A DNA stretch of 32,002 bases from Pseudomonadota bacterium (GTDB lineage: Bacteria; Pseudomonadota; Gammaproteobacteria; JAAEPA01): the NCBI GenBank assembly GCA_039714615.1, contig JBDLIZ010000002.1, forward strand, positions 1-32,002. Direction: 5' to 3'. The notes beneath the pieces are model-generated. The model did no database searches, had not been told where the DNA came from, and saw only the letters and a program-made list of their open reading frames with translations. Below, piece by piece: positions 257 to 30,757 of this stretch (its first letter is position 1; every line of letters starts with the position of its first letter). A program made the translations under genes and the position numbers.

Positions 257-502
257 TTAGTGTGTGCCAGCCAATAAACCTGCAACGCTGAGATCTTCAT
301 CAATTTCTGGCCAATGTATTCCTTCTCCATCTCCAAGTATTTCCCATTTTTGAAGCTGCTCAGAGGATGCTTTTGATAAGCGTGGAAACCAAATAAGAGG
401 GACAGTGACTGTACGGCCATCAATTAATTCGACAATAACAGACGTTTCGGTGCATACAACATTCTGTGCTAGAGGGTGTAATTCAACCGCTAAAGTACTC
501 AT
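257..502 (-). CDS. DUF2442-family small protein (putative antitoxin-like partner of DUF4160)
   Basis: 81-aa ORF starting MSTLAVELHPLA. GGAGG lies 6 nt upstream of the ATG at 502; the longer ORF start at 529 has no RBS. The C-terminal ...W..LGDGEGIHWPEIDEDL pattern is typical of DUF2442. It overlaps the upstream DUF4160 gene by 20 nt. Confidence 0.75.
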   Translation of the reverse strand: MSTLAVELHPLAQNVVCTETSVIVELIDGRTVTVPLIWFPRLSKASSEQLQKWEILGDGEGIHWPEIDEDLSVAGLLAGTH

Positions 503-719
503 TCCATGCCTCCATGAGAGTATGTTCATTTTCAGCCACTAATGTTTCAAGTTTTCGAAGCTCTTTTGCTGAGAAACGCGTTGAACTTGCAAGAACAATA
601 GGGCTTAGCCAAAATTTTGCCAGCATATTATCTCTTTGGATATGAATGTGTGGCGGTTCACTACTTTCATTGCTGTAGAAGAAAAAACGAAAAGGGCCTA
701 TACGTAATATCGTTGGCAT
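483..719 (-). CDS. DUF4160-family small protein (putative toxin-like partner)
   Basis: 78-aa ORF with N-terminus MPTILRIGPFRFFFYSNESSEPPHIHI, the hallmark DUF4160 motif. It is paired and overlapping with a DUF2442 gene, as is usual for this family. Confidence 0.8.
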   Translation of the reverse strand: MPTILRIGPFRFFFYSNESSEPPHIHIQRDNMLAKFWLSPIVLASSTRFSAKELRKLETLVAENEHTLMEAWNEYFSG

Positions 720-813
720 TGGGTTATTTTACTAAAGTTGGTGCGATTTTTCATTTTTAAGCTAACGTAAGGCTGAAGGGCACGGACCACAGAACTGAGC
801 GAAACCGCCAAAC

Positions 814-841
814 CTGAAAAAGCCGCGTTTTGGCCCGCGGC
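814..841 (-). terminator. Rho-independent terminator candidate on the minus strand, downstream of the giant membrane-protein gene
   Basis: Minus-strand reading gives GCCGCG-GGCCAAAA-CGCGGC followed by TTTTTCAG. The stem is 822-827/836-841 and the T-tract corresponds to 814-821. Confidence 0.5.
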
Positions 842-876
842 CCTCCCTCCCCAGCTTTTTGTGTATGCCCGGCATG
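841..876 (-). repeat. Right, inverted copy of the bipartite motif flanking the DUF4160/DUF2442 cassette
   Basis: CCCTCCCTCCC at 841-851 and CCCGGCATG at 868-876 are the reverse complements of the blocks at 207-217 and 192-200. Confidence 0.6.
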
Positions 877-1031
877 GGCATGATCTTATGGGGTACAAGT
901 CCCCTGTACATTTTTCGGAAATGGGTCATTCTGACAACTTTAAAATGTACTAGCCGGCGGCAAGGGCTCAGAGGCGACCCGATGGACGCGTCCTGTATTC
1001 TCGAAATACCCATCCACCATGGGTATTTCAC

Positions 1032-4000
1032 TCATCTCGGCCCTTGCGGTTCGGTAACCGCCTTCTTTTGGCTATTAGGCCTACGCCTTTTGATCTCCAG
1101 TTGAATCGCGCGCCATATTCCCTGGTCGGAAAAACAAGCCCAACCCCAGCGCAACCAGCCCAATAGTGCAAAAGCCAGCCACAGGGCCCAGGCGAGCATC
1201 AATACCCTATAGACAAGCAGGGGAACGGAAAGCACCCAGGCCCGTGGCAGAGTGTTTTGGATCCGGTCCTGATACCAGTTCAGTTCATGGGCATAGGAAC
1301 GGTTACCCGCGATCTGCATCTCCGGGACCCCCAACAGGCCCTGTTGGACGACGTAGAACAATGCGATCAGGGCCGATAGCGTCAGCAAGACGAGACCGAG
1401 CTGTACGGTGTTGAAGGTAAACTTGGAGACCCCTTCCGGGATCCTTGCCCTCAGGCCCAAGGCCAACAGCCAGCCCGCCACGATTACTGCGATCCAGGAC
1501 GGCGCTTGGCTCAGCCCTATACCTAACAGAACCCATTGCCAATACCCTAGGGGGGTGAGCCGAATACGGGCAAGCCCGATGGCAATCAGAACGATGACCA
1601 GTAGAACCCCCCAGAACAGGACCGCGGGGCCCAGCCGCGGCCCCCCCGTGGCAAGCACCCAGCGATCTCGTCCCAACTCGACCGTGATCGAGCTGTTGAC
1701 GCTGGCAGCCCCCAGATCCATTTCCGGTGTCTTTAACCGGCTATGGATACCCTCGGCGCGACGCCAGTTCATACGGATGTCCTGTTTCCCAGGCCTGATC
1801 GGCAGGTCCACCTGCCGGCCTTGTTGGCGGATGGGTTGGGCAACCCCGTCGATGCTGACCGATTGCAACCGTACCTGCTCGGGCAATATCAACCGGTGCC
1901 GGCCTCCTTGACTGCTGCGTATCGTCAGCGCCAGGTTAGCCTCCGTGGCGCGCCGTCCGGTAGATATCCGCAAATGACTTCTGTCTATGGTAATAGTCTG
2001 TCCCGCTACACCCTCAGGCCGGGTGATGTCTAACTGTACCTGTTCCCCCGGCCAGGGACGCCATTCGGGTAACCAGCGTTGGCTCGGGTCCTGGTGATGG
2101 ACGACCGGGATACCGCTCAATTCGACATGCCAGATCGGACCGATATCAGCACGCCACAGCTCCGACCAGGCAGGATCATCACCCGCGCTCAGCACGATCC
2201 GTTGGTTCTGCTCGAGCCTGGATGACCATTGCAACTGCTTCTGCTCGGGGCCCATATTCACCAAGACCTTACCCTGTTTAACCCGGATTCCAGCACTGAG
2301 CACCGACTCGCCTGGCAACAGGGGAATCTGCAATACCACGGGCACCCCCGTGGGTGAGCTGCGTACGATGCGCGTCCTGACGTGCCAATCCAAACCTAAT
2401 TGCAGGGTGCGCTCGACGCTGACAAAAGGCGGTAAGGCCGCAGATTCAAACGCACCAGCTTGCTCTGTATCCCCTTGAATACGGGTGAATTGCAGCTGTT
2501 GATCCGGCACCCCGTCTTCATGCACGCCCGCTACCGTCCAGCCCTGGGCATTCACCTCGACATGATGGGGTTTGAGAGCCAGCGGCAGTTGAAGGCGTTC
2601 AAACCCCGTCAGCACCCCGGAGAACTGTACCAGATGGCGCCCTTTCTCTACCTGTATCCACAGCGGCCCGGAAGCGGATCGAAACAAGGCTTGGGTCTCG
2701 GCGCCATCGATGAGCACCTGCTGTGGGGCCCAATGCCGTACATCGATGGGCAGGGGGATGGCGCTCTCATCCTGGGCATAGACCTCCAACCGGGCGTGTA
2801 TGTGCTGATCGGAGAGATCCAGGCGCAGGCGTGCAATCTGCGCACACTGGGGCAGGCATTCAGGGGCTTGCAGAAGTCGCTGTTCGAGCTGTTTGAGCAT
2901 CTCAGGAGTGGGAAATTCGGCCCCTGCGTCCTGAACCATCGAGCCGCCGAGCAGCCCGAGGACTAACAGCAGCACGGCGCCATGGCTAGTAACCCGGGGG
3001 ATGCGACGTAAAAGTTCGCCTGGATTAAAAACACGCAAGCTAAATCCCGCCAACAACAGCACGCTTATTAGGTTCAATACAAGATTGATGCCGGGAGACA
3101 GTAAAGACAGGGTGATGGTCTGGTCCTTGTCCACGGGCCCCTGCCAGCTCAGCGGGATGGATGCCCATTGCCAGCGTGGCAGTCCCGGACCGGTCTGAAT
3201 GTTGGCCTTGGGGTCGATCTTGACAAACGGTGCCCTTGAGCTCGCTCTTTTCTCTGCCGGGGCCATTGATTTGTATTCTGCAAGGATATCGGCCTCATAA
3301 CGCTCCACCGACCTCCTGCCTTGTTTCTCAGCTGTTGCCGGGGCGGCACCCTCAGCGGCGCCCACCGAACGCCATGGATATTCCAGCTGAGGATAAAGCC
3401 CCGTACGCACCTCCTGGACCATGAATGGCAAGGCCACCAACACCAGCGCAACAAGACTGGCATTACGATACCAGCGCACCAGGAATTGTATACGTCCAGC
3501 CGGTAATACCCTCAATAAGGCCACGGCCGCCAGGATATTGAGCCAGATATATCGCGGGGCCCCGGGTTCGTGCCAGATCAACCCCAGAGTGACCAAGGCC
3601 AGCACACCCCAGGGCCATCCCCATAGGCGGCCCACCGCGATGGCAACGATCAACACGATAAACAGGTCCAGCAGGGTCCAGCGCTGCAGCCAGGAATTGG
3701 GGACATTATCTACCCCCGAGACCGAAAACAGCTTCCAACCCGGTGGCAGATGCAGATTGGCCCGCACCTGTTGGAAATCTTGACCCCAGCCCGTGACCGG
3801 CAGAGTGTGCACTTCACCGAGATATCGGCTATCGGCGCTAAGGCTGATGGCCCCCCTGCGCACCTCCAGGCCACGTTTATCCGTACCGGACAATCTAGTA
3901 ATGAACTGAGGCGTCCCGTCTACGGCCACCCGGCCCAGGGCGATCTGCTCATTGGCCTCCAACCGCCAGCCCCGGGTCATGCTGCCGGTGATTCGATCCT

Positions 4001-5114
4001 GCAAGGTATATCCATCGCCGCTGAAATCCAACCACAGATTGCGCTCCAGGGACAGTTGATCGGGCTCGGGTTCGGGGTCGCCCCGGCGAACGACCTCCAG
4101 ATCCAGCATATCCCCGGTTGTTAGCCGGTAGGCCGGTAGATTGCGCCATGGCTCGGGGAGCTTGGTCTGGCGTGGGTCCACCATCGGTGCCCCCTTGAGT
4201 TCCACTAGCCGCAGATGGGGCCGCGCATCAAAGACCCAGACCTCTTCCTGCGGCCAGGGCGGCGCGGATTCCTGCACACCGATCCGAGTGATATCCCCGG
4301 GGTGACGCGCCGTAAACTCAACGCTCCAGTGCCCGGGACGTAGCTGCAATCGAAGCCGACCTTCCCGCTCCAATCGAGCGGGCAAGCGACTGTCGAGCCG
4401 CAAAGGAATGAAGTCATCCAACAATGCCCCGTCAAGCAGCACCTCACGTGGTGCGCCGGAAACCTCCATCTCGATATGGGTAATAAGCCGCAAGGGATTG
4501 TCATCGATCAGCCGACGAAAGACCTGCAGTTCCAGCCGTTCGCTGGGTGGTGCTTGTGTCTTACGATCGGAATCGCGTTCCCGCAGCCAAAGATGGCCAT
4601 TGGAATCGACATCTGGGATAGGTATCACCCGGCCCTCAACGGTGAGCGTCACCAAGGCGCTGGCCGCCGGAATGGGCAGGGTCTTGGGCAGGCGGTCCCA
4701 GACAAAGCGCCCTTCGATGCGCTGCTGACCGACTTCGAGCCAGAGGCTTGGGCGGCCCTCATGGCTGGCCACCAAGGCCGTCTCACCATTGAGCTGGACA
4801 TCTTGCGGCCAGAGCTTGCCGTCGCCGGGCAGCTTCACCCGGCTTTTTGCATAAACCCGCCAGGATTGACTGAACGTCCCACCCTGTTGATCGAGTCTCA
4901 ATTCGAGCCGCACGGGCCATGCGCATCGCCGATGGCTGCTGTTGTACACATGTGGGCAGGCCCGGTCTTGGTGGTCCAGCAATACCCAGTCAACCCATGG
5001 TTGCAGTGGCTTGGGAATATCCTCGGACGAGAGTGCTGCTCCAAGAGCGAAACTTGAAAACGACAGGATTGCAATGAGTACTGTGAAACGGATGGTGTGC
5101 ACAGCAAACTCCAT
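1032..5114 (-). CDS. Very large (about 1,360 aa) multi-pass membrane protein of unknown function with an internally duplicated architecture
   Basis: Uninterrupted 4.3-kb ORF. The start is placed at MEFAVHTIRFTVLIAILSFSSFALGAALS (signal-peptide-like) rather than the ORF-track start at 5324. It has two long soluble modules, each followed by clusters of hydrophobic helices. No known catalytic motif was recognised. Confidence 0.8.
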   Translation of the reverse strand: MEFAVHTIRFTVLIAILSFSSFALGAALSSEDIPKPLQPWVDWVLLDHQDRACPHVYNSSHRRCAWPVRLELRLDQQGGTFSQSWRVYAKSRVKLPGDGKLWPQDVQLNGETALVASHEGRPSLWLEVGQQRIEGRFVWDRLPKTLPIPAASALVTLTVEGRVIPIPDVDSNGHLWLRERDSDRKTQAPPSERLELQVFRRLIDDNPLRLITHIEMEVSGAPREVLLDGALLDDFIPLRLDSRLPARLEREGRLRLQLRPGHWSVEFTARHPGDITRIGVQESAPPWPQEEVWVFDARPHLRLVELKGAPMVDPRQTKLPEPWRNLPAYRLTTGDMLDLEVVRRGDPEPEPDQLSLERNLWLDFSGDGYTLQDRITGSMTRGWRLEANEQIALGRVAVDGTPQFITRLSGTDKRGLEVRRGAISLSADSRYLGEVHTLPVTGWGQDFQQVRANLHLPPGWKLFSVSGVDNVPNSWLQRWTLLDLFIVLIVAIAVGRLWGWPWGVLALVTLGLIWHEPGAPRYIWLNILAAVALLRVLPAGRIQFLVRWYRNASLVALVLVALPFMVQEVRTGLYPQLEYPWRSVGAAEGAAPATAEKQGRRSVERYEADILAEYKSMAPAEKRASSRAPFVKIDPKANIQTGPGLPRWQWASIPLSWQGPVDKDQTITLSLLSPGINLVLNLISVLLLAGFSLRVFNPGELLRRIPRVTSHGAVLLLVLGLLGGSMVQDAGAEFPTPEMLKQLEQRLLQAPECLPQCAQIARLRLDLSDQHIHARLEVYAQDESAIPLPIDVRHWAPQQVLIDGAETQALFRSASGPLWIQVEKGRHLVQFSGVLTGFERLQLPLALKPHHVEVNAQGWTVAGVHEDGVPDQQLQFTRIQGDTEQAGAFESAALPPFVSVERTLQLGLDWHVRTRIVRSSPTGVPVVLQIPLLPGESVLSAGIRVKQGKVLVNMGPEQKQLQWSSRLEQNQRIVLSAGDDPAWSELWRADIGPIWHVELSGIPVVHHQDPSQRWLPEWRPWPGEQVQLDITRPEGVAGQTITIDRSHLRISTGRRATEANLALTIRSSQGGRHRLILPEQVRLQSVSIDGVAQPIRQQGRQVDLPIRPGKQDIRMNWRRAEGIHSRLKTPEMDLGAASVNSSITVELGRDRWVLATGGPRLGPAVLFWGVLLVIVLIAIGLARIRLTPLGYWQWVLLGIGLSQAPSWIAVIVAGWLLALGLRARIPEGVSKFTFNTVQLGLVLLTLSALIALFYVVQQGLLGVPEMQIAGNRSYAHELNWYQDRIQNTLPRAWVLSVPLLVYRVLMLAWALWLAFALLGWLRWGWACFSDQGIWRAIQLEIKRRRPNSQKKAVTEPQGPR

Positions 5115-5444
5115 AGACGTGAGTGGGAAAGCGACTCGAGCATCAAAAAACGGCAATCTATTCGATCGAGCACTTACTGTGTAACCGGTAATCGATCGCT
5201 GCCGCATCATTCCCGATAACACCCTATTGGGTTCACCGAAAGCGGTTCTAGATGACTTCTTGCAGATTAGCCAATAAGCAACGGTTATACACGGATGCGC
5301 ATATTTTAGTAGCGGGAGCCACATGAGTTTCCCTACAATGAGTCAGTTTATCACTTGGGGTTAGCACCGTTGCGGCAGGCACGCGACATAAAATCTGAAA
5401 CGATCGCGAACCCTACAACTTTCAATGCTAAATGGGAGAACTAC

Positions 5445-6635
5445 ATGATTAAACCCCATGGGTCCGAGACCCTGAACCCCTTGTTTGTATACGACCAGGG
5501 CAAGCACGATGCGTTACTGCATGAGGCGGAGAGCCTGCCCGCGCTCATGCTGAGTTCCGCGGCCGCCGCCAATGCCGTCATGATGGGCGCCGGCTACTTC
5601 AACCCCCTTACCGGCTATATGAATGCCGCCGATGCGATCAGCGTAGCGCAGCGCATGCATACCACCGATGGTCTTTTCTGGCCCACACCGATATTGAATA
5701 TGACCAATAATATCGAGGTGGTCAAGGGGCACAAACGTATCGCCTTGCGTGATCCCAATGTCGAGGAACACCCCATCCTGGCGGTGATGGAGGTAGAGGA
5801 TATCGAAGAGCTGACCGATGCCGAGATCAATCTCATCACCGAAAAGGTCTATCGCACCACTGATATGGAACACCCCGGTGTCGCGGCCTTCCAATCCGCG
5901 GGCAAATATGTCATCTCCGGGCCGATTCAGGTGCTCAACTGCAGTTACTTTCAGCAAGACTTCCCAGACACCTTCCGCACTGCGGTTGAGATCCGCAATG
6001 AGATCATGGAGCATGGCTGGAACAAGGTGGCCGCCTTCCAGACCCGTAACCCCATGCACCGCGCCCATGAGGAACTGTGCAAGATGGCCATGGACGCGGT
6101 CGGGGCCGACGGCGTCATCGTTCACATGCTGCTGGGCAAACTCAAACCCGGCGATATCCCGGCCCCGGTCAGGGATGCCTCCATTCGCAAAATGGTCGAA
6201 CTCTACTTCCCGCCCAATACCGTCATGATCACCGGCTACGGATTTGACATGCTCTATGCGGGACCGCGCGAGGCCGTACTGCACGCCATTTTCAGACAGA
6301 ACATGGGGGCCACCCACCTGATCGTCGGTCGCGATCACGCCGGTGTAGGCGACTACTACGGCGCCTTCGATGCCCAGACCATCTTTGATGAAGAGGTGCC
6401 CGAAGGGGCCCTGGAGATCGAAATCTTCCGTGCCGACCACACCGCCTACTCCAAAAAGTTGAACAAAGTGGTCATGATGCGCGACGCCCCGGATCACGAC
6501 AAGGAAGACTTCGTACTGCTTTCAGGCACCAAGGTCCGCGAGATGCTCGGCCAGGGTATTGCACCGCCCCCGGAGTTCTCCCGCCCCGAGGTCGCCCAGA
6601 TCCTCATGGATTATTATCAGAGCAAAAATAAATAA
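5445..6635 (+). CDS. sat: Sulfate adenylyltransferase (ATP sulfurylase), dissimilatory type of sulfur oxidisers
   Basis: 396 aa starting MIKPHGSETLNPLF, with GGGAGA 6 nt upstream of the ATG. It contains QTRNPMHRAHEEL and GRDHAGVGDYYG motifs and is near-colinear with the Riftia-symbiont/Allochromatium Sat as I remember it. Confidence 0.95.
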   Translation: MIKPHGSETLNPLFVYDQGKHDALLHEAESLPALMLSSAAAANAVMMGAGYFNPLTGYMNAADAISVAQRMHTTDGLFWPTPILNMTNNIEVVKGHKRIALRDPNVEEHPILAVMEVEDIEELTDAEINLITEKVYRTTDMEHPGVAAFQSAGKYVISGPIQVLNCSYFQQDFPDTFRTAVEIRNEIMEHGWNKVAAFQTRNPMHRAHEELCKMAMDAVGADGVIVHMLLGKLKPGDIPAPVRDASIRKMVELYFPPNTVMITGYGFDMLYAGPREAVLHAIFRQNMGATHLIVGRDHAGVGDYYGAFDAQTIFDEEVPEGALEIEIFRADHTAYSKKLNKVVMMRDAPDHDKEDFVLLSGTKVREMLGQGIAPPPEFSRPEVAQILMDYYQSKNK

Positions 6636-6768: not shown

Positions 6769-7683
6769 ATGAACGATCCCAAAAAAATGAATGGCACCCG
6801 ACAACGGCGCACCGAGGCAAGAGCGGGTTACGGATTTCTTCTACCTGCCCTGTCGGCCATCGCAGTTTTCTTCTTCCTGCCGGTGGTGGCGGCGCTCAGC
6901 CTCAGCTTCACCGACTTCGATATCTATGCCCTGGGGAATATCGACTATTTGCGCTTCGTCGGCTTACGAAATTATTTCCAGCTGGGAGAAAACCCCCTGT
7001 TCTGGAAGGCCTTGGGAAATACGCTTTATTTTGCGCTCATCGGTGGGCCGCTCTCAGTAGGGATCTCACTGGCTGCGGCGATGCTGGTCAGCTCAAAACT
7101 GGTTCGATTCAAGGGTCTGTTTCGTGCGGTCTTTTTTCTGCCCGTGGTGACCACCCTGGTGGCGGTCGCCGTCGTGTGGCGGTATCTATACCATCCAAGC
7201 TACGGATTACTCAACTATGGGCTCGGTCTGTTGGGCGTGGATCCCATCGATTGGCTGGGCGACCCCGATTGGGCCATGCCGGCCATCATCCTGATGGCGG
7301 TGTGGAAAAATTTCGGTTACAACATGATCATTTTTATCGCCGGCCTGCAAAACATCCCGGAACAGCTCTATGAGGCAGCGAAAATAGACGGTGCCAACGC
7401 ACTACAGCAGTTCAGGCAGGTGACCCTGCCGATGTTAGCCCCCACTTTTCTATTCGTCGCCATCATCACCATGATCGGTTATTTCCAGCTGTTCGCCGAA
7501 CCCTATGTCATGACCCAGGGAGGACCGTCCAATGCCACACTGAGCATTGTATTACTTATGTATGAGGAAGGCTTTCGATGGTGGAATATAGGTTACGCCT
7601 CGGCGCTGGCCTTTGTGCTTTTCATTATTATCCTATTTGTTACGCTGTTGCAGTTGCGGTTTAAGAAGGGTATCGAGCAATGA
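6769..7683 (+). CDS. Carbohydrate-type ABC transporter permease (MalF/UgpA-like)
   Basis: 304 aa with about 6 hydrophobic helices and the EAA-loop motif EAAKIDGANALQQFRQVTLPML typical of CUT1 sugar permeases. Confidence 0.9.
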   Translation: MNDPKKMNGTRQRRTEARAGYGFLLPALSAIAVFFFLPVVAALSLSFTDFDIYALGNIDYLRFVGLRNYFQLGENPLFWKALGNTLYFALIGGPLSVGISLAAAMLVSSKLVRFKGLFRAVFFLPVVTTLVAVAVVWRYLYHPSYGLLNYGLGLLGVDPIDWLGDPDWAMPAIILMAVWKNFGYNMIIFIAGLQNIPEQLYEAAKIDGANALQQFRQVTLPMLAPTFLFVAIITMIGYFQLFAEPYVMTQGGPSNATLSIVLLMYEEGFRWWNIGYASALAFVLFIIILFVTLLQLRFKKGIEQ

Positions 7684-8501
7684 GCTGGCAGCTAAAAAAA
7701 TGGCTCATCTATGGGCTGTTAGGCATCACCTTCTGTTTCGCCATCACGCCCCTGTTATGGATGCTATCCGCCTCATTCATGCCCAGTGGCGAGGCTAATC
7801 TTTACCCCCCGAGGATACTGCCTAGCCGATTTACCCTGGAACACTACCAGGCCCTATTTACCCGCCTCAACCTCGCTCGCTACTTGATCAACAGCACCGC
7901 GCTGGCCATCGCCGTGACACTGATCTCCTTGCTGCTCAATTCGATGGCGGGTTATGCCTTTGCCAAACTACGTTTTGCTGGGCGAGACCGGATATTTCGT
8001 GTCTTGCTCGGCGCACTGGTCATTCCCGCGCAGGTATCCATGCTGCCGTTGTTCCTGCTGCTCAAACAGTTTGGCTTCATCAATACCTACTGGGGTGTCA
8101 TCATCCCTGGAATGGCCAGCATATTCGGTATTTTTTTGATTCGTCAATATGCCCTGTCGATCTCCGACAGCCTGCTTGATGCCGCGCGTATCGACGGTGC
8201 CAGCGAGTTTAGAATCTATTGGTCACTGGTGTTACCCCTTTGCAAACCCATCCTGATCACGCTGGCGATTTTCACCTTCATGGGGACATGGAACGATTTT
8301 ATGTGGCCCCTGATTATTCTTACCGACAATGATATGTATACCCTGCCCGTCGCCCTGGCAAATCTGCTCGGCGAGCATGTCCAGGATACAGAATTGATGA
8401 TGGCCGGTTCGGTATTGACCACTTTGCCGGTCATGCTGGTGTTCATGGTCTTGCAGAAACACTACATCGAAGGCATCATGATCGGCGGCGTGAAGGAATA
8501 G
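7680..8501 (+). CDS. Carbohydrate-type ABC transporter permease (MalG/UgpE-like)
   Basis: 273 aa with EAA-loop DAARIDGASEFRIYWSLVLP. An ATGA start/stop overlap with the upstream permease indicates translational coupling. Confidence 0.9.
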   Translation: MSWQLKKWLIYGLLGITFCFAITPLLWMLSASFMPSGEANLYPPRILPSRFTLEHYQALFTRLNLARYLINSTALAIAVTLISLLLNSMAGYAFAKLRFAGRDRIFRVLLGALVIPAQVSMLPLFLLLKQFGFINTYWGVIIPGMASIFGIFLIRQYALSISDSLLDAARIDGASEFRIYWSLVLPLCKPILITLAIFTFMGTWNDFMWPLIILTDNDMYTLPVALANLLGEHVQDTELMMAGSVLTTLPVMLVFMVLQKHYIEGIMIGGVKE

Positions 8502-8683
8502 AAGAAGTCTTACAAACTGGGAAGTCTCAAGGCAAACGCAGTCAGCCGCAAACATTAATCAGTTTTTTCAGCCTTTTTAAGCTGATTTCCTAAGCGATAG
8601 TGTCCATAGGGCCGCAGAATTGGACCTTTCCTTCCCCATGGTGTGTCTCAACTTGTATCGCTCTTGACTGGAAACAAAACCGC

Positions 8684-11600
8684 ATGCAGTCGATCAAACC
8701 TGTTTTTGAAGATTCTTTCAGACAACTCATTCTGCTCGGCCTCTGCCTATCGATGGCGACCTGGTCATCCCAGGCAAACGGCATTGTATTAGACGATTTT
8801 GAGGATGTCGGTGATTGGAAAACGTCCACATCCGAGGGTGTCGATCTCGAAATCGCCCAGGATAAAGGCCATACCGGGATGGCGATGAGACTGGACTTCG
8901 ATTTCCATGACTACAATGGCGGTGGATTCGTGCTCGCGCGTAAGACCCTGCCAATCACATTACCTGCAAACTATTCCTTCTCTTTTTATATCCGTGGCGA
9001 AGCGCCGCTGAATAACTTTGAATTCAAACTGATCGATCCCTCCGGGCAGAATGTCTGGTGGTTCAATCGGCGAAATTTTGAATTTCCGCGTAAGTGGCAA
9101 AAAATCACCATCAAAAAACGTCACATCGGATTCGCATGGGGTCCGGCGGGAGGTGAGTTGAAAGAGGCTGCAACCATCGAGTTTGCGATCTCTGCGGGTA
9201 AAGGGAAAAAGGGCTCGGTGTGGATAGACGAATTAATCTTCGAAGAACGCGAACCCCTAGCCGAACATCATGAATTTCCCCTGGTACGCGCATCCACGAC
9301 GGCCGCCGGTTACGAGGCCTCCTCGGTGTTTGAAAAGGATCCGGCGACCATGTGGAAAAGCGGTTCCATTGCCGAGGGTCAGTGGCTGCAACTGGACTTC
9401 AAGCAAAAACGCGAATACGGCGGGCTGATCATCGATTGGGGCCTGGAGGATTACGCCGAGGCCTACGAGGTCCAGATATCCGATAATGGTAAAGACTGGG
9501 CGCGCGTCTATTCCGTTGCTTCCAGCAACGGTGACCGGGACTACGTCTACCTGCCGGACTCCGAGTCGCGCTATCTGCGCCTGGATCTGCAACGCAGCAG
9601 CCGAGGACAGGGTTACAGCATCGAGTCCATTGAGATCAAACCCTATCAGTTTTCGGCATCGCCAAATAACCTCTTTGCGGCCATTGCGCGCGATTCCGCG
9701 AGGGGCGCCTACCCGAGATATTTCTCCGGAGAGCAATCCTACTGGACTGTCGTCGGGGTGAACGGAGACCAAAAGGAGGCACTGATCAACGAAGAAGGTA
9801 TGGTGGAGATCGACAAAACCAGTTTCTCTATCGAACCCTTTCTCTACATCGACGATCGTCTGATCACCTGGAACGATGTCAATGTGAGCCAGGAGCTTGA
9901 AAACGATTACCTGCCTATTCCCTCCGTCCTCTGGGATCACTCAGGATTGAAGCTCAAGATCACGAGCTTTGCCGCGGGAGAGTCAGGAGAATCTTTGCTT
10001 TATCTGCGATACCAGGTAAAAAATACGACTGACCAAAAGCGCCAAGGCAAACTGTTCCTTGCATTGCGCCCCTTTCAGGTCAACCCCCCCTGGCAGTCCT
10101 TGAATATGACGGGAGGAATGGGGCATATCAAGGAGCTGTTCGCCGACAACGGCACCATACGGGTGAATAACAACAAGACCGTAATAAGTCTATCGGCAAC
10201 CGAGCACTTCGGCGCCGTGAAGTTTGCCCAGGGCAGTATCACGGATTTTCTTCGCACCGGCACCCTGCCACGCCAGAGTACTGTGTTCGATCATCTCGGT
10301 TACGCCTCCGGGGCCCTCGAATACCCTCTAGATCTACTGCCCAGAGAGAGCAAGGAAGTCTACCTCATCGTACCCTTCCACCAGACCAAGCCCCTGGTGT
10401 TAAAAGACCGCTCAGAGGAGGCGATCGCCCGCTTGTGGACCGAGGCATTCGATGCCACACACCGTTACTGGGAATCCAAGCTCAACCTCATCGATCTTCA
10501 ACTTCCTTCCTCACCGGCGACCCGCAAGATCGTCAATACCCTCAAGACCACCCTGGCCTATATTCTCATCAATCGTGATGGTTCCGCCCTTCAACCGGGC
10601 TCGCGCGCCTACGAGCGTTCCTGGATACGCGATGGTGCCATTACCTCGACGGCATTGATGAACCTGGGTCACACCCAAGAGGTGCGTAAGTTCATCGAAT
10701 GGTATGCGGATTACCAATTCAGCAATGGCAAGGTCCCCTGCTGTGTGGATACCCGGGGTGCGGATTCAGTCCCGGAAAACGACAGTCATGGGCAGTGGAT
10801 TTATCTGGTCATGGAGTATTATCGCAACACCCGGGACACCGGTTTTCTCACCGAGATGTGGCCCTATGTCGTGAAGGCCGCTAATTATATCAACCACCTG
10901 CGCCAGCAACGCATCACGGAGGCCTACCTGAAACCGGAGAAAAGCGTGCTATACGGTCTGGTTCCTGAATCCATCAGCCACGAGGGATACTCTTCCAATC
11001 CCGTGCACTCCTACTGGGATGATTTTTTCACCCTCAGAGGTCTAAAAGACGCCACAGATATCGCCACGATACTGGGTGAAGAGGAGTACGCGACCAACTT
11101 CAAACGCATACGTGATGCCTTCAGCGAGGCGCTGTTCGAATCCATTACCCGCAGCATCACCATGCATGGAATCGATTTCATCCCCGGCGCGGCGGAACTC
11201 GGGGATTTCGATCCCGCCGCCACCACCATCGGTATCGATCCGGTTGGTGAGATGGTCAAGCTACCGCAAGCAGCCCTGACCAGGACCTTCGAAAAATACT
11301 ACCAGATCCTGCGCGAGCGCAGCCAAGACGGCATGCATTGGGAGGCCTACACCCCCTATGAACTGAGGGCAGTGGGAACCTTTATCCGTATGGGACTCAA
11401 GGATCGCGCCCATGAAGCCCTGGATTTTTTCTTTCAGGATCAGCGTCCACCGGCTTGGAATCATTGGGGAGAGATCGTGTGGCGCGATCGCAATGCCCCG
11501 AAATTCATCGGCGACCTGCCTCACACCTGGGTCGGTGCGGAATACATTCGCGCGGTACGCAGCCTGTTCCTTTATGAACGAGAGAGGGACGACGCCCTGG

Positions 11601-11893
11601 TACTCGGAGCGGGCATTCCGGAACAATGGGTCGTAAACGGAACCGGCGTTACATTAAAACGCTACCCGACCTATTTTGGGACGCTCAATTACAGCATGAG
11701 TCATTTGCAGGACGGTGCTATCCATTTGCGCATGAGCGGTGACCTGAACCTGCCACCTGGGGGTATCGTGGTCCACTCACCGCTGAATTCCTCCCTCAAG
11801 GGGGTGACTGTCAACGGCGAGACGATCGAAAAATTTGCGACGGATAAAGTTATCGTCAGGCAATTCCCGGCAGAGGTTGTATTACACTATTAG
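8684..11893 (+). CDS. Secreted 1,069-aa discoidin (F5/8 type C) domain protein with a C-terminal six-hairpin glycosidase-like domain; putative glycoside hydrolase
   Basis: The start is set at MQSIKPVFEDSFRQLILLGLCLSMATWSSQANG (signal peptide). The discoidin-like segment is EGQWLQLDFKQKREYGGLIIDWG...YEVQISDNGKDWARVY. The C-terminal region has the RSWIRDGAITSTAL motif reminiscent of GH15-like (alpha/alpha)6 barrels. Confidence 0.7.
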   Translation: MQSIKPVFEDSFRQLILLGLCLSMATWSSQANGIVLDDFEDVGDWKTSTSEGVDLEIAQDKGHTGMAMRLDFDFHDYNGGGFVLARKTLPITLPANYSFSFYIRGEAPLNNFEFKLIDPSGQNVWWFNRRNFEFPRKWQKITIKKRHIGFAWGPAGGELKEAATIEFAISAGKGKKGSVWIDELIFEEREPLAEHHEFPLVRASTTAAGYEASSVFEKDPATMWKSGSIAEGQWLQLDFKQKREYGGLIIDWGLEDYAEAYEVQISDNGKDWARVYSVASSNGDRDYVYLPDSESRYLRLDLQRSSRGQGYSIESIEIKPYQFSASPNNLFAAIARDSARGAYPRYFSGEQSYWTVVGVNGDQKEALINEEGMVEIDKTSFSIEPFLYIDDRLITWNDVNVSQELENDYLPIPSVLWDHSGLKLKITSFAAGESGESLLYLRYQVKNTTDQKRQGKLFLALRPFQVNPPWQSLNMTGGMGHIKELFADNGTIRVNNNKTVISLSATEHFGAVKFAQGSITDFLRTGTLPRQSTVFDHLGYASGALEYPLDLLPRESKEVYLIVPFHQTKPLVLKDRSEEAIARLWTEAFDATHRYWESKLNLIDLQLPSSPATRKIVNTLKTTLAYILINRDGSALQPGSRAYERSWIRDGAITSTALMNLGHTQEVRKFIEWYADYQFSNGKVPCCVDTRGADSVPENDSHGQWIYLVMEYYRNTRDTGFLTEMWPYVVKAANYINHLRQQRITEAYLKPEKSVLYGLVPESISHEGYSSNPVHSYWDDFFTLRGLKDATDIATILGEEEYATNFKRIRDAFSEALFESITRSITMHGIDFIPGAAELGDFDPAATTIGIDPVGEMVKLPQAALTRTFEKYYQILRERSQDGMHWEAYTPYELRAVGTFIRMGLKDRAHEALDFFFQDQRPPAWNHWGEIVWRDRNAPKFIGDLPHTWVGAEYIRAVRSLFLYERERDDALVLGAGIPEQWVVNGTGVTLKRYPTYFGTLNYSMSHLQDGAIHLRMSGDLNLPPGGIVVHSPLNSSLKGVTVNGETIEKFATDKVIVRQFPAEVVLHY

Positions 11894-12138
11894 TGGGACG
11901 GCGGCATGGATACAGCGGATCTAGCAAGATGTCTGACGAACATCTTGCCCGCCAACACCCGTCCATCTTCACCTCCATGATGAAGCTCCGGTCGATAGCC
12001 TTCTTCTTTCCCTGCCCGGACAAAGGCCTCATATCTTTGTCGACACGTCTTCAGCCGTTTGGCAAACTGACTCAGTACCCAATCGGTTTCTAGCCAGCAC
12101 TGCAGGGGGACGCCGTAGACTGCGAACTTGCTGAGCAT
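11890..12138 (-). pseudogene. C-terminal remnant of an IS200-like / REP-associated tyrosine-transposase family gene
   Basis: The 82-aa ORF contains WLETDWVLSQFAKRLKTCRQRYEAFVRAGKEEGYRPE, resembling the C-terminal tail of COG1943-type transposases. The catalytic N-terminal part is absent. Its 3' end overlaps the stop of the neighbouring gene. Confidence 0.45.
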
Positions 12139-12160
12139 TGAGAAGGGGGAGCAAAAGGCA

Positions 12161-12176
12161 AGACCCGACCCTGTTT
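12161..12176 (+). repeat. Left copy of a 16-bp direct repeat AGACCNGACCCTGTTT bounding the AT-rich acyltransferase-PilZ gene
   Basis: AGACCCGACCCTGTTT at 12161-12176 versus AGACCAGACCCTGTTT at 13725-13740 (15/16 identical). Confidence 0.6.
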
Positions 12177-12339
12177 TCCTCGCAATAATTTTTGGTTTTT
12201 CACTATCAATTCACTGCGAACGGGCAACCTGAATTTATTTAAACATCCTGCTAGCAAGCAGCCTCATGTTATCGGAGTTCGTACCGATATCTTAGCTGTC
12301 AGAGTTGCTGAAAGATGATTAGATTCAGGGGGGAAATCG

Positions 12340-13605
12340 ATGAATTTGCACTCCTTACAGGTTGTTACCAATCAACTATTCAATTCTTTCGTAAACTTGA
12401 AGCCGGTTACCCCTTGTAAGTATCGAAAGAAAATTCGGCTTAAATATCATCTGGATAAGCCTTACAATGTCAAGATCGCCGATACCTTAAATGAAATCGA
12501 GCAAGCCTACACCATGCTACAAGATTGCTACCAAGAAAGTGGGATTTTACGCAATCGGAAGGATACACCGATGCGGATAACCAAGTATCAAATCATCCCG
12601 AGCACTTCTCTGATCGTTCTAAAACTTCACGACGAAGTCATTGGCACAGTCTCTCTGATTGAAGACTCGCCGTTCGGTCTCCCTGTTGACCAGATGAGTG
12701 ATCTGCGCTTCCTACGTAAAACCGGCAAGAAAATATCCGAAGTTTCATCCTTTGCCATCAAAAAAAAATATCGAATGAAGGGGCTGCAATTCCTGATCAT
12801 CAATTTTATTCTTAGATACTCTCAATCCATCGCTGGAATTGATTATTGGGTAATTTCAACCCATCCGAGAACCATCAATTTCTATAAAAAATGTCTCGGA
12901 TTTCTTCCGATCGACCGCAAAACCAGAAAGTACGGCTTTGTAGAGGGCTCCGAAGCCTACGCTCAATACTTAGATATCGACCCCAGCACCTATCGCAAAA
13001 CTCTGAGAAAAATGTATCACAACACGGAGAAGTCAAAGAACCTATTACAATATTTTGACACTGACTTCTCCAACCATTTTAAATTTCGAACCTTAAAATA
13101 CTACAATGCAACTTCCTACATTATGTCGCCTAAAATCGTCGATTATTTCTTCAAGCGACAATCGAATGTTTTAGAACAACTATCCTATTATGAAATCGAA
13201 TTTCTAAAATCCATCTACAATTCTGTCGACTATAAAAAGATCATTGATAACCAGGGCTATAACGACGAAATGGCTACTCAGTTCAAACAAAAGGTGGAAC
13301 AACGATTTTATGTGAACTGTCAAGGCAAGGTCTTGTACAACAACACCACTCGGGTTGGTGATGTCAAAATTATCGACGTTTCTCTCAATGGTTTAAAAGG
13401 TATTGTGGGCAAAAATCTTATACTAAAAAATGCAGAACATGTCATGTTGGTTTTAGAAATTGCCCATCGGAGCAACATTACTATTGAAGCCGAGGTGACC
13501 TGGCAACGAGAAAAGCGAATTGGATTTAAAATCTTGGTTTCACCGCATTCCCAGTGGCGAGAATTTATTGACTATCTTACCTGTTTTTATGAGAAGGTTG
13601 CGTAG
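12340..13605 (+). CDS. Fusion protein: FeeM-like (GNAT-fold N-acyl amino acid synthase-like) acyltransferase domain plus C-terminal PilZ domain
   Basis: 421 aa with GGGGGAA RBS. The N-terminal half (...VIGTVSLIEDSPFGLPVDQMSDLRFLRKTGKKISEVSSFAIKKKYR...FYKKCLGFLPI) resembles the FeeM/Acetyltransf_5 family. The C-terminal ~100 aa has a PilZ-like beta-barrel pattern with DVSLNG (DxSxxG). G+C is low: 19-23 of 60 on three sampled lines. Confidence 0.6.
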   Translation: MNLHSLQVVTNQLFNSFVNLKPVTPCKYRKKIRLKYHLDKPYNVKIADTLNEIEQAYTMLQDCYQESGILRNRKDTPMRITKYQIIPSTSLIVLKLHDEVIGTVSLIEDSPFGLPVDQMSDLRFLRKTGKKISEVSSFAIKKKYRMKGLQFLIINFILRYSQSIAGIDYWVISTHPRTINFYKKCLGFLPIDRKTRKYGFVEGSEAYAQYLDIDPSTYRKTLRKMYHNTEKSKNLLQYFDTDFSNHFKFRTLKYYNATSYIMSPKIVDYFFKRQSNVLEQLSYYEIEFLKSIYNSVDYKKIIDNQGYNDEMATQFKQKVEQRFYVNCQGKVLYNNTTRVGDVKIIDVSLNGLKGIVGKNLILKNAEHVMLVLEIAHRSNITIEAEVTWQREKRIGFKILVSPHSQWREFIDYLTCFYEKVA

Positions 13606-13724
13606 AATTCGGATCAGAGCAACTTTTCAAATGTATCCTTTGCGAGCCGAAACCAAGTTGGCATCCCCGACCGGGACTTGCACCCGGCAAGAAACACCAA
13701 GCTTTGCTTGGCGCACTAGAATCT

Positions 13725-13740
13725 AGACCAGACCCTGTTT
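13725..13740 (+). repeat. Right copy of the 16-bp direct repeat AGACCNGACCCTGTTT
   Basis: See the 12161-12176 feature. Confidence 0.6.
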
Positions 13741-13788
13741 GTGTTTGCTCAATTTATATTAATATCGATTTAAGTTCACGCCAAGTGA

Positions 13789-13868
13789 TTAAGTGTGCGA
13801 ACATCGGTCTAGGCTCGGCTGACGCTTTCGGTTAACGAAAGGGACCGATCATCCTGGCTTACACTTAA
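13789..13868. repeat. Nested inverted repeats forming a roughly 80-nt compound hairpin
   Basis: Three nested complementary pairs: TTAAGTGT (13789-96) with ACACTTAA (13861-68), ATCGGTC (13803-09) with GACCGAT (13843-49), and CTTTCG (13825-30) with CGAAAG (13836-41). Confidence 0.6.
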
Positions 13869-13903
13869 ATACGCTGTCAAAAGGGCTGGCATAACATCAA
13901 TTA

Positions 13904-14137
13904 CTAATTCTCCCTTGCGCGCCATGCCCAACGCTGGCCGAACCCGTTCGATGCCTCCGTAACTATGGACTTGCCATCGCCTGCAAATACAACCGCGAAA
14001 CGACCGTCATCGTAAAATGCGGCATTATAGAGCGCAGATTGAGAATGCTCCCATGTCATTAGTGCTGAGTCTCGGCCTTCACAGCCACTCAACGAGACAG
14101 CCAATATGATTGAATAGACAAGAGTTTTTGTTTGCAC
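13904..14137 (-). CDS. Small lipoprotein of unknown function
   Basis: 77-aa ORF (GTG start) with signal peptide and lipobox: MQTKTLVYSIILAVSLSG-C. The RBS is weak, so confidence is moderate. Confidence 0.5.
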   Translation of the reverse strand: MQTKTLVYSIILAVSLSGCEGRDSALMTWEHSQSALYNAAFYDDGRFAVVFAGDGKSIVTEASNGFGQRWAWRAREN

Positions 14138-23443: not shown

Positions 23444-24700
23444 ATGCTACCGTGGCCAGTAGCTCAGCCGCCCGCAGGATCGTTTAAGCTGAGTATGATA
23501 TCCAACGCCAGACACAAGGCACCTAATCCGCTTTCTCCCGATGCATTTTGTCAGCTTGTAAAAGCCCTGCCTCCCGATAAGATATCGACCCTCCCCTTAG
23601 ATCGGCTACCCACGAATATCCCGGCCGATATGGGTGCTAACTTACCCCCGGCATCCCGTGCTGCTGTTGAGCATTTGTTGCATACAGCCTATTCTTCCCG
23701 TCAAATCCAGAGCCAAGAGAAAGAGCACAGCCTGAGGGACGAAGTAGTCACTATGCTCAAAAAGGCAAGTCTTCTGGAGGACAACATTAAGGTCAAGGTT
23801 TTTAAGGGAAAGGTCGGCAACCTGATTCAGATGCTGTCGCACTCCCGCAACGATACAAGCCAAGTCTACACCAAACGAATCGAAAAAAATCTCGGACATA
23901 TCAATAATTTATTATTCGACGTCAATAGTGAGTACGGCAGCTTTCTCGAAATGATCAAGAATCTCGAGCAAATCAATGCCAGCAACGATGCCGAAACAAG
24001 AACACTTGACATCAGTATCGATCGGTTACGACGCCAGTCGAATAGAATAACTCGGCTGTTAGGAGAATATTATCTCCTCAGGTTCAAAATCAGCATTCGT
24101 GCCATCCAAAGAAAGATCAGACAGATCGAGGATCAAGACCCATCGCTGACGAGTAAGAAGCGAGAACTCGGTACCCTATGTAAACGAATGGATGCCACTC
24201 AGAGTTTATGGAAACGCCTGTTCAGAAAACCCCGGGCAAGACAAGAATATAAAACGCTACAGGAGCGCATCGCTGCGCTGGTGAGTGAAATCAAGGTTCT
24301 TCAAGTCGTCATTGTTGAGAGCGATCTCACCAGATGGTTGGATGCGATCCATGATGCCAGCCTCAATCCATACTCAAGAAACCGTGTCTCGAAATCGACA
24401 CAAGAGGCCCATGTCGCACTGCGACGTATCCTCACCCGATATTGCACACTGCAGGAGGATACTGCGCTACAGATAGCCCACACCCCCTTTCTAGAGGACA
24501 CACCGAAATTCGCCATTGATTCCTTATTGACATCGGAACAATCGACGCTCCATTATTTCATCCGAGATAAAAAAGGCATCCATCCTTGGTTTGTTGATGA
24601 AGCCCAAAAAAAGCTGAAGGCGTTGAAGCGCCTGCGCAAGCGAACCTTCGCGGAGCTGCGCCGCACGAGTAAGGTCTATCGTCGAGTAGCGCAGGAATAG
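23444..24700 (+). CDS. Hypothetical protein: Pro-rich N-terminus, long coiled-coil-like body, basic C-terminus
   Basis: 418-aa ORF; an alternative ATG at 23495 gives 401 aa. No recognisable catalytic or binding motif. It has heptad-like Leu/Ile/Lys/Glu-rich stretches and a C-terminal KKLKALKRLRKRTFAELRR. Confidence 0.6.
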   Translation: MLPWPVAQPPAGSFKLSMISNARHKAPNPLSPDAFCQLVKALPPDKISTLPLDRLPTNIPADMGANLPPASRAAVEHLLHTAYSSRQIQSQEKEHSLRDEVVTMLKKASLLEDNIKVKVFKGKVGNLIQMLSHSRNDTSQVYTKRIEKNLGHINNLLFDVNSEYGSFLEMIKNLEQINASNDAETRTLDISIDRLRRQSNRITRLLGEYYLLRFKISIRAIQRKIRQIEDQDPSLTSKKRELGTLCKRMDATQSLWKRLFRKPRARQEYKTLQERIAALVSEIKVLQVVIVESDLTRWLDAIHDASLNPYSRNRVSKSTQEAHVALRRILTRYCTLQEDTALQIAHTPFLEDTPKFAIDSLLTSEQSTLHYFIRDKKGIHPWFVDEAQKKLKALKRLRKRTFAELRRTSKVYRRVAQE

Positions 24701-30127: not shown

Positions 30128-30166
30128 TTGCCCAGTAGCAGATCCTGTCCTTTGGAGGTGATCATC

Positions 30167-30757
30167 GTGTACGACTTGACTCAACAGGTACTGCGTACCG
30201 ACAAATCAGGCATGCCGTTGGAATGGATCGGCTATCAGGAGGCGGTGCGCCTCTACTATACCGATCAGGTCGCGTATTATTGCGGAACCGCCCTGTATCG
30301 AATCCATGGCGGTATTAGCGCCTGCACCGGTGCTCAAAGTGTCATCGAGATCAATTCAATCATTGCCACTAACGGCAGCAATAGATCAATACTCCATGAC
30401 TACGTCCCTCCGTTGAACAACCCTGCACTGTTCAGACGTGATGCGCAGCTCTGCCTGTATTGCGGTATTGCTTACCGCGATAAAGAACTCTCCAGGGACC
30501 ACGTCAGGCCATTGAGCTGGGGTGGCAAAGATCATTGGAACAACGTAGTCTCTGCCTGCAAACGTTGCAACAATCACAAGGCAGGGCGGACCCCGGAGGA
30601 GGCAGGGATGGAGTTACTGGCCATACCCTTTACGCCTACCCATGCCGAATACATCTACCTGCAGGGGCACAGGGTATTAGCTGATCAAATGGAGTTCCTG
30701 ATGGCCCACTTCCCGCGCAGTAGCCCATTGCACGAGCGCCTGCGCAACAGGATTTAA
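30167..30757 (+). CDS. HNH endonuclease family protein
   Basis: 196 aa from a GTG preceded by GGAGG at an 8-nt spacing. The HNH/zinc motif is CLYCG...SRDHVRPLSWGGKDHWNNVVSACKRCNNHKAG. Confidence 0.85.
   Translation: MYDLTQQVLRTDKSGMPLEWIGYQEAVRLYYTDQVAYYCGTALYRIHGGISACTGAQSVIEINSIIATNGSNRSILHDYVPPLNNPALFRRDAQLCLYCGIAYRDKELSRDHVRPLSWGGKDHWNNVVSACKRCNNHKAGRTPEEAGMELLAIPFTPTHAEYIYLQGHRVLADQMEFLMAHFPRSSPLHERLRNRI

Follow-up and report, generated by a model that had tools for sequence, protein, structure and literature searches.

The window analysed here is the first 32,002 nucleotides (forward strand) of contig JBDLIZ010000002.1, assembly GCA_039714615.1, from a gammaproteobacterial member of the Pseudomonadota. 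At 1032..5114 (-) it carries a gene for a membrane protein of 1,360 residues plus stop codon, counted from an ATG at 5114. It is flanked by an AT-rich DUF4160/DUF2442 pair on one side and a divergently transcribed sat gene on the other and, as an earlier note on this DNA had stated, it is the largest in the window by the list of open reading frames (ORFs). This is a real and strongly conserved gene, and its product is internally duplicated. The maximal extent of the reading frame is 1032..5324 (-), the longest ORF of the minus strand. An identical database protein (P0001) has 1,356 residues, which implies a GTG start at 5102 with GGAG 6 nt upstream; since this differs from the ATG at 5114, the start is uncertain by 12 nt (four codons).

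Compared by BLASTP, residues 1-640 and residues 641-1360 align in one colinear stretch that spans 538 residues with 25% identity (E 1e-6). The soluble modules alone give a Smith-Waterman score of 129 against 43+-7 in 300 shuffles (z 12.2), and whole halves treated in the same way reach z 16.7. Module profiles built from 145 diverse family members, which are 39-50% identical to the window protein, align in hhalign over 583 columns with a probability of 98.8% (E 1.1e-16). That this giant membrane protein consists of two homologous halves is thus borne out by BLASTP, by the shuffled controls (z 12-17) and by profile-profile comparison, and the pairs of motif strings that the earlier note quoted from the two halves all align with one another. 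Its statement that the first transmembrane helices match holds in part: the strings do align colinearly, but the membrane helices of the two halves tested alone show no significant similarity (Smith-Waterman z 3.5; hhalign E 0.096). Their resemblance is credible only as a colinear extension of the ectodomain alignment. Orthologous halves are ~50-55% identical between species and so are far closer than the two halves of one protein (~25%), which dates the duplication to before the family radiated. Conservation is equal in the two beta modules (majority-residue fraction 0.64 and 0.63), which argues that both are in use and neither is degenerate. An origin by ancient tandem duplication and fusion of one module is well supported by these alignments.

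AlphaFold2 models were made per half, for residues 1-600 (mean predicted local distance difference test score, pLDDT, 80.7) and 639-1360 (mean pLDDT 78.7). Both repeat one plan: an anchor helix, a short helix or helices leading to a Cys pair, a beta region of ~390-400 residues with pLDDT mostly 85-95, four membrane helices of 11-33 residues each, a beta-hairpin and a long fifth helix. All segments that follow lie on the minus strand. The N-terminal hydrophobic helix (residues 1-28; 5031..5114; modelled helix 3-21, in agreement with hydropathy) is a candidate signal peptide or first membrane anchor and is poorly conserved (majority-residue fraction 0.37). Short helices, predicted to be periplasmic, continue to the conserved pair C53/C64 (residues 29-64; 4923..5030). 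The all-beta ectodomain 1 (residues 65-456; 3747..4922; pLDDT ~90) is modelled as a jelly-roll followed by tandem beta-sandwiches, the latter also recognised by Foldseek. Membrane block 1 contributes four helices (residues 481-573; 3396..3674) and is followed by a variable, low-complexity insertion rich in A/P/S/E/Q (residues 574-633; 3216..3395), which has a pLDDT below 50 and measures 42-123 residues across the family. Module 1 closes with a conserved QTGPGLPxWQW beta-hairpin and the fifth helix (residues 634-696; 3027..3215), placed by the model and by conservation.

Module 2 starts at an Arg-rich, presumably cytoplasmic loop and an internal helix resembling a signal anchor (residues 697-729; 2928..3026). 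A periplasmic helix ends in the second Cys pair, C753/C757, within the motif CLPxC (residues 730-757; 2844..2927); both segments were placed by the model and by conservation. The alignments, the model and Foldseek agree on an all-beta ectodomain 2 homologous to ectodomain 1 (residues 758-1157; 1644..2843). Model and conservation then give the four helices of membrane block 2 (residues 1158-1261; 1332..1643) and a conserved beta-hairpin loop, GLLGxPxMQIAGNxS...NWYQDR (residues 1262-1298; 1221..1331). By conservation, the last membrane helix (residues 1299-1329; 1128..1220) is the most conserved segment of the protein. The chain ends, according to model and conservation, in a variable Lys/Arg-rich tail predicted to be cytoplasmic (residues 1330-1360 and the stop codon; 1032..1127).

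The alternation of short K/R-containing loops with K/R-free tips, together with the KRRR-rich C-terminal tail, follows the positive-inside rule. The predicted arrangement puts both ectodomains and both hairpins in the periplasm and the junction loop (~697-710) and the C-terminal tail in the cytoplasm. This gives a topology of (1+5)x2 helices, or of 11 helices if the first is a cleaved signal peptide. The charged linker that the earlier note had seen after the first block of helices exists, as residues 574-633, but it is not the joint between the modules. Homology with module 2 identifies this low-complexity segment, the least conserved part of the protein, as an insertion in the periplasmic loop between helices 4 and 5 of module 1, before hairpin 1. 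The modules in fact meet at a short loop rich in Arg, ~697-710.

Conservation was scored over the same 145 members. The protein has only five cysteines, and the two pairs C53/C64 and C753/C757 are kept in at least 95% of the members, which confirms that each module opens with a Cys pair, as previously noted. These pairs probably form periplasmic disulfides that staple the short helix. The other residues conserved at this level are mostly Trp, Gly and Pro, together with paired Arg, Asp and Glu that look structural; they make no catalytic constellation. In membrane block 1, W479 and F485 are invariant, and two acidic residues at the outer interface are kept less strictly (D483 in 87%, E516 in 84%). 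In membrane block 2, G1162, W1168, W1194, R1222 and Q1238 are kept in 96-100% of members, with Q1238 at 100%. The last membrane helix has the highest majority fraction of the protein (0.82). W1309 and W1312 are invariant in mid-helix, and an aromatic stripe, Y1302-W1309-W1312-W1320-W1323, runs along one face. The family alignment shows no conserved Asp, Glu, Lys or Arg in mid-membrane, that is, no charge network within the membrane.

This pattern bears on the main rival to the binding platform that we propose below, namely a transporter or translocase in which a pseudo-symmetric (1+5)x2 helix bundle would form the path for a lipid-linked or polymeric substrate, with the ectodomains as guides and the aromatic stripe as a "greasy slide". 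RND (resistance-nodulation-division)/SecDF proteins and ABCA-type exporters are built by internal duplication and carry large periplasmic domains between helices 1-2 and 7-8. The predicted topology of the window protein is consistent with that plan, as judged from AlphaFold2 secondary structure, hydropathy and the positive-inside rule, although its N-terminal helix could belong to a signal peptide that is cleaved off. Conservation is strongest in the membrane helices (W1309, W1312 and Q1238 invariant), acidic residues D483 and E516 sit at the outer interface, and the hairpins couple the membrane blocks to the ectodomains. Against a translocase, several helices are very short (11-18 residues), a charged network in mid-membrane is absent, D483 and E516 are conserved only to 84-87%, no transporter family in Pfam or NCBIfam matches, and no ATPase, synthase or other energising partner gene is conserved beside the gene. 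We consider this alternative conceivable but doubtful.

Searches of known families returned little. Pfam gave 0 matches for the window protein at E<=1, and across 30 family members no match recurred at E<=5; NCBIfam gave sub-threshold noise only for the window protein. No PADLOC defence family matched at E<=0.1, and neither the family profile nor either membrane block, searched separately, found anything meaningful among PDB sequences. A motif scan for HEXXH, GXMEN, CXXC and Walker A found none of them. The orthologue of Azoarcus sp. KH32C (WP_015452075.1) is annotated by PGAP as "hypothetical protein", as is every named database match ("hypothetical"). Literature searches for a bacterial Ost1-like or duplicated membrane family turned up nothing relevant. 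The earlier statement that no characterised family or catalytic motif can be recognised is therefore corroborated by the Pfam, NCBIfam, PADLOC and PDB sequence searches and by the motif scan. With no catalytic family, motif or constellation found in these searches and in the alignment, there is no sign of an enzyme.

One sub-threshold match deserves discussion, since it bears on the idea that this is after all a membrane enzyme (GT-C-, Wzy- or ligase-like) acting on a lipid-linked or envelope substrate, with a site at the outer interface (D483, H515/E516) and ectodomains that bind the substrate. NCBIfam TIGR04370, an oligosaccharide repeat-unit polymerase, aligns with residues 1160-1261 at E 0.003 (16.6 bits, cut-off 40). 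Acidic residues do lie in the first helix that follows the ectodomain, at its periplasmic end. The match, however, is far under the cut-off, falls in hydrophobic sequence and lies in the other module than D483 and E516, and nothing like it was reproduced when 30 family members were compared with Pfam. H515 is conserved in only 58%, and glycan-biosynthesis neighbours do not recur among 86 related loci. The membrane blocks also seem too small for known GT-C or Wzy folds. An enzymatic role of this kind is decidedly unlikely.

Structure comparison was more informative. The two ectodomains, searched independently with Foldseek, have the same top matches in the PDB, yeast Ost1 and human ribophorin I (RPN1), at E 4.5e-5 (module 1) and E 8e-8 (module 2), in both cases at probability 1.00 and with ~370 of 434 columns aligned; the superpositions have TM-scores of 0.14-0.28 and root-mean-square deviations (rmsd) of 12-26 A for both modules. 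Next in rank comes the beta-domain at the N-terminus of LTA4H, M1 aminopeptidases and tricorn F3, over 150-178 columns at rmsd 4-6 A, followed by ITIH1, PIGT and integrin-alpha legs. The models thus confidently show beta-sandwich ectodomains of the Ost1/LTA4H-N type. The likeness is one of domain type and order, at the level of the predicted fold, and does not prove homology. Ost1, a subunit without catalytic function, has a pair of similar, beta-rich domains in the lumen and is reported to bind glycosylated peptide (PMC7226087), and a profile search with hidden Markov models found no promising prokaryotic candidates for the non-catalytic subunits of oligosaccharyltransferase (OST) (PMC4973528).

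The fold resemblance could be taken further, by supposing that the family is an envelope machine not recognised before, a fused pseudo-dimer whose ectodomains are true, very distant relatives of the luminal domains of Ost1/ribophorin I and hold or guide an extended glycan, a glycoconjugate or a nascent exported polypeptide on the outer side of the inner membrane, with the invariant Trp stripe of the last helix as part of a membrane-level substrate path. If so, the protein would be a bacterial counterpart of a non-catalytic OST subunit and would represent a new and widespread function in methanotrophs and sulfur oxidisers. We regard such kinship as unlikely. Among the annotated gene neighbourhoods of orthologues, there is no STT3/PglB-like gene.

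The family is large. A word-indexed search returned at least 2,475 matches, the top 120 of which are all 1,297-1,408 residues long. A module profile of two rows, searched exhaustively, matched at least 3,364 clusters defined at 50% identity, 1,646 of them at E<=1e-30; the top 150 of the 3,364, a listing saturated with two-module members, are all two-module proteins except for two truncated entries. The longest family members carry no domain fusions, only low-complexity tails or linkers. In a genome scan, relatives were confirmed at no fewer than 427 of 600 pattern-matched stretches. The best 80 loci belong mainly to Methylococcales, Chromatiales/Ectothiorhodospiraceae, Acidiferrobacterales, Beggiatoales (Thiomargarita, Thioploca), Sulfuriflexus, Zobellella and Oceanisphaera. 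The family is found mostly in Gammaproteobacteria, with ~40-60% identity across whole orders, and reaches the Betaproteobacteria, where the orthologue of Azoarcus sp. KH32C (36% identity) lies on the 737-kb plasmid pAZKH. Orthologues at 50-55% identity also occur in metagenome-assembled genomes labelled Nitrospirae, Binatia, Syntrophobacterales and Desulfuromonadales (loci L012, L020, L036, L048 and L055), which reflect either horizontal transfer out of the Gammaproteobacteria or binning errors.

Composition gives no sign of foreign origin. The gene had been called G+C-rich, and its G+C content is indeed 0.598, but G+C at third codon positions (GC3) is 0.675, inside the range of its neighbours (0.53-0.75), and the excess sits in codon positions 1 and 2. 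Since GC3 equals that of the neighbours, the richness comes from an Arg/Gly/Pro/Ala/Trp-rich amino-acid composition; horizontal transfer as its cause was rejected on the same ground. The protein has a Trp content of 4.0%, compared with 1.5% in the other proteins of the window. That the product is a vertically conserved inner-membrane protein of a family without a name is well supported.

The divergent spacer between the gene and sat (5115-5444) is 330 bp long, so the length and the divergent arrangement reported for a shared control region are correct, although the arrangement is not conserved. The sat product is an ordinary TIGR00339 sulfate adenylyltransferase. The spacer contains no promoter-like consensus, a promoter and terminator scan of 500-5600 stayed at background level, and Rfam matched nothing in the whole window. 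No apr, dsr or sox gene occurs among the window ORFs scanned, with ORFs under ~150 aa beyond 9 kb and the ORF at 23444-24700 unassigned. Upstream of 85 orthologues there is no shared motif, whether for sigma-54, sigma-E, sigma-70, PhoB, Fur, Crp or Fnr or as common 8-mers. The 86 related loci were scanned by tblastn with the window's Sat, permeases and glycosidase, reaching ~10 kb from the orthologue. None has sat nearby, nor does the Azoarcus pAZKH locus (0/87 together), and the permeases and the glycosidase of the window are likewise found in none of the 86. De novo clustering of flanking ORFs found no neighbour family in more than 14 of the 86 loci. Recurring neighbours reflect local synteny in Methylobacter-type genomes or are generic ABC ATPases (a generic ABC cluster in 14 of 86 loci, median 4 kb away, on mixed strands), and seven annotated loci of relatives have neighbours that are all different. 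The differing neighbours, the lack of a shared upstream motif and the lack of an Rfam element argue that the gene stands alone and that its adjacency to sat is incidental.

These data bear on the question raised by the divergent pair, namely whether the protein works together with ATP sulfurylase in sulfur metabolism and both are co-regulated from the region between their genes. Adjacency across 330 bp suggested it, and many carriers are sulfur oxidisers (Chromatiales, Beggiatoales, Acidiferrobacterales, Sulfuriflexus). The family is equally common in methanotrophs (Methylococcales) and is also present in Aeromonadales (Zobellella, Oceanisphaera) and in the betaproteobacterium Azoarcus; no upstream motif is shared, and sat is out of reach at all the related loci, so that synteny largely refutes the idea. 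The functional pairing implied by the earlier note accordingly fails by an outcome that had been set beforehand as refuting it. The link to sulfate activation, however tempting, does not hold, and we give it almost no credence.

Two-component genes raise another possibility, that the ectodomains detect an envelope or periplasmic cue and the protein relays it to a cytoplasmic partner as a sensor or signal transducer. A histidine kinase directly adjoins the orthologue in two lineages, with an OmpR-type response regulator at L004/L005 (7048-9928) and without one at L001 (8028-9374). Elsewhere, two-component genes are not conserved neighbours. A cytoplasmic output domain is missing from the window protein, its cytoplasmic loops and tail being short, variable or low-complexity, and there seems to be very little chance that it is a sensor. 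At the Azoarcus pAZKH locus (L087 8911-13919), the stop codon of the orthologue and the start of the next gene, for an isoaspartyl peptidase/L-asparaginase, overlap by 4 bp, so that this pair may be a local operon; the other loci do not show such an arrangement.

Otherwise the window carries the genes of an ordinary chromosome: ABC sugar permeases, a large glycosidase, hrpA, nudix, yaaA, nadA, argS, priA and hemH. Just downstream of the large gene, the AT-rich pair (G+C ~0.43) at 257-719 (-) comprises DUF4160 (483-719), which weakly matches the type II toxin DhiT, and DUF2442 (257-529). In L006 and L034, too, the orthologue has a homologue of DUF2442 a few kb away, and in L006 this homologue is accompanied by DUF4160. 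Directly downstream of sat, 6769-11893 (+) holds two ABC sugar-permease genes and a gene for a 1,097-aa protein with F5/8 type C and six-hairpin glycosidase domains, a cluster that looks like one for glycan uptake and degradation, unrelated to sulfur. A low-G+C island at 12001-14000 (0.41-0.44, against ~0.52 elsewhere) contains a FeeM-type N-acyl amino acid synthase gene at 12340-13605 (+) with G+C 0.39 and GC3 0.47, and may have been acquired horizontally. At 23444-24700 (+) lies a 418-aa ORF without any Pfam or NCBIfam match, the second protein of the window that has no assignment, and priA and hemH are separated by a stand-alone gene for an HNH endonuclease at 30128-30757 (+).

We propose, tentatively and by analogy, that the protein is a fused, pseudo-dimeric and non-enzymatic platform in the periplasm that binds, holds or scaffolds an extended periplasmic polymer. 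Two Trp- and Arg-rich beta-sandwich ectodomains would hold the polymer, which could be a glycan, a glycoconjugate or an unfolded polypeptide, near the membrane. The conserved membrane helices, rigidly tied to the ectodomains via the hairpins, would place the platform at the bilayer surface, and the aromatic stripe of the last helix may contact lipid or a membrane partner. As a pseudo-dimer (the packing of the halves being predicted) without an enzymatic site, the fused protein would be self-sufficient and need no operon partner. Binding or holding of an extended polymer is the role proposed both for Ost1 and for the N-domain of M1 peptidases.

Several considerations weigh against this platform: (i) the functional step is drawn from fold analogy only, the Foldseek TM-scores are low (0.14-0.28) and the role of Ost1 is itself unsettled; (ii) the topology is predicted; (iii) the membrane part is the most conserved (last helix 0.82; W1309, W1312 and Q1238 at 100%). 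Such conservation exceeds the need of a passive anchor and therefore leaves room for a conduit or an enzymatic role. We judge the platform possible rather than probable.

A protein of 1,360 residues, in a family of more than 3,000 clusters without a structural assignment, is a sizeable blank in the cell-envelope inventory of bacteria that matter in the environment, methanotrophs and sulfur oxidisers among them. The analysis provides a domain map, a topology model and a list of invariant residues (two Cys pairs, Q1238, W1309, W1312). For genetics, carriers that can be cultured include Methylobacter, Methylocaldum, Zobellella, Oceanisphaera, Sulfuriflexus and Azoarcus sp. KH32C. The value of these results lies in a well-defined target for genetics and structural work; they overturn nothing known and point to no mechanism yet.

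Comparison with known systems delimits what is shared. With Ost1/ribophorin I, the protein would share tandem beta-sandwiches on the non-cytoplasmic side directly before a membrane helix, and the lack of a catalytic site. Ost1 has one membrane helix and works in the multi-subunit OST complex with STT3, whereas the window protein is bacterial and duplicated, has 11-12 predicted helices and an extra N-terminal jelly-roll, and lacks a conserved partner gene; no match to Ribophorin_I was found for it (E<=1) or for 30 members (E<=5). One sandwich per module superposes with probability 1.00 on the N-domain of M1 aminopeptidases/LTA4H (also tricorn F3 and ERAP1). The peptidase domain, HEXXH, GXMEN and a Peptidase_M1 match are all missing, and the non-catalytic accessory fold alone is shared.

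Of the polytopic systems, Gram-negative YidC has the same outline as each module: a signal-anchor helix, a large periplasmic beta-sandwich domain and five membrane helices. Kinship was rejected, since hhalign of the module and membrane-block profiles against a YidC sequence (locus L002) gave a probability of 0.1%. Pfam shows no 60KD_IMP or YidC_periplas match, the NCBIfam YidC model scores E 0.24 (10 bits, cut-off 425) and YidC is absent from the top 50 fold matches. The type VII ABC permeases (MacB, LolCE, FtsX) and LptFG are, as is proposed here, (pseudo)dimeric, with periplasmic domains mechanically coupled to a small helix bundle. They differ in the position of the ectodomains and the number of helices, neither FtsX nor LptF_LptG matches the window protein, and its gene has no conserved ABC ATPase neighbour. 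RND/SecDF proteins have porter domains of alpha/beta type, whereas the periplasmic domains modelled here are all-beta sandwiches and the helix blocks much shorter; neither a match to ACR_tran, MMPL, SecD_SecF or Patched in Pfam and NCBIfam nor a mid-membrane Asp/Lys relay is present. The predicted topology is nonetheless consistent with theirs, in which twelve helices go back to an internal duplication and a large periplasmic domain separates helix 1 from helix 2 and helix 7 from helix 8. Set beside these systems, the family, for which Pfam and NCBIfam have no curated model and the literature searched no description, combines known fold types in a new, duplicated polytopic arrangement.

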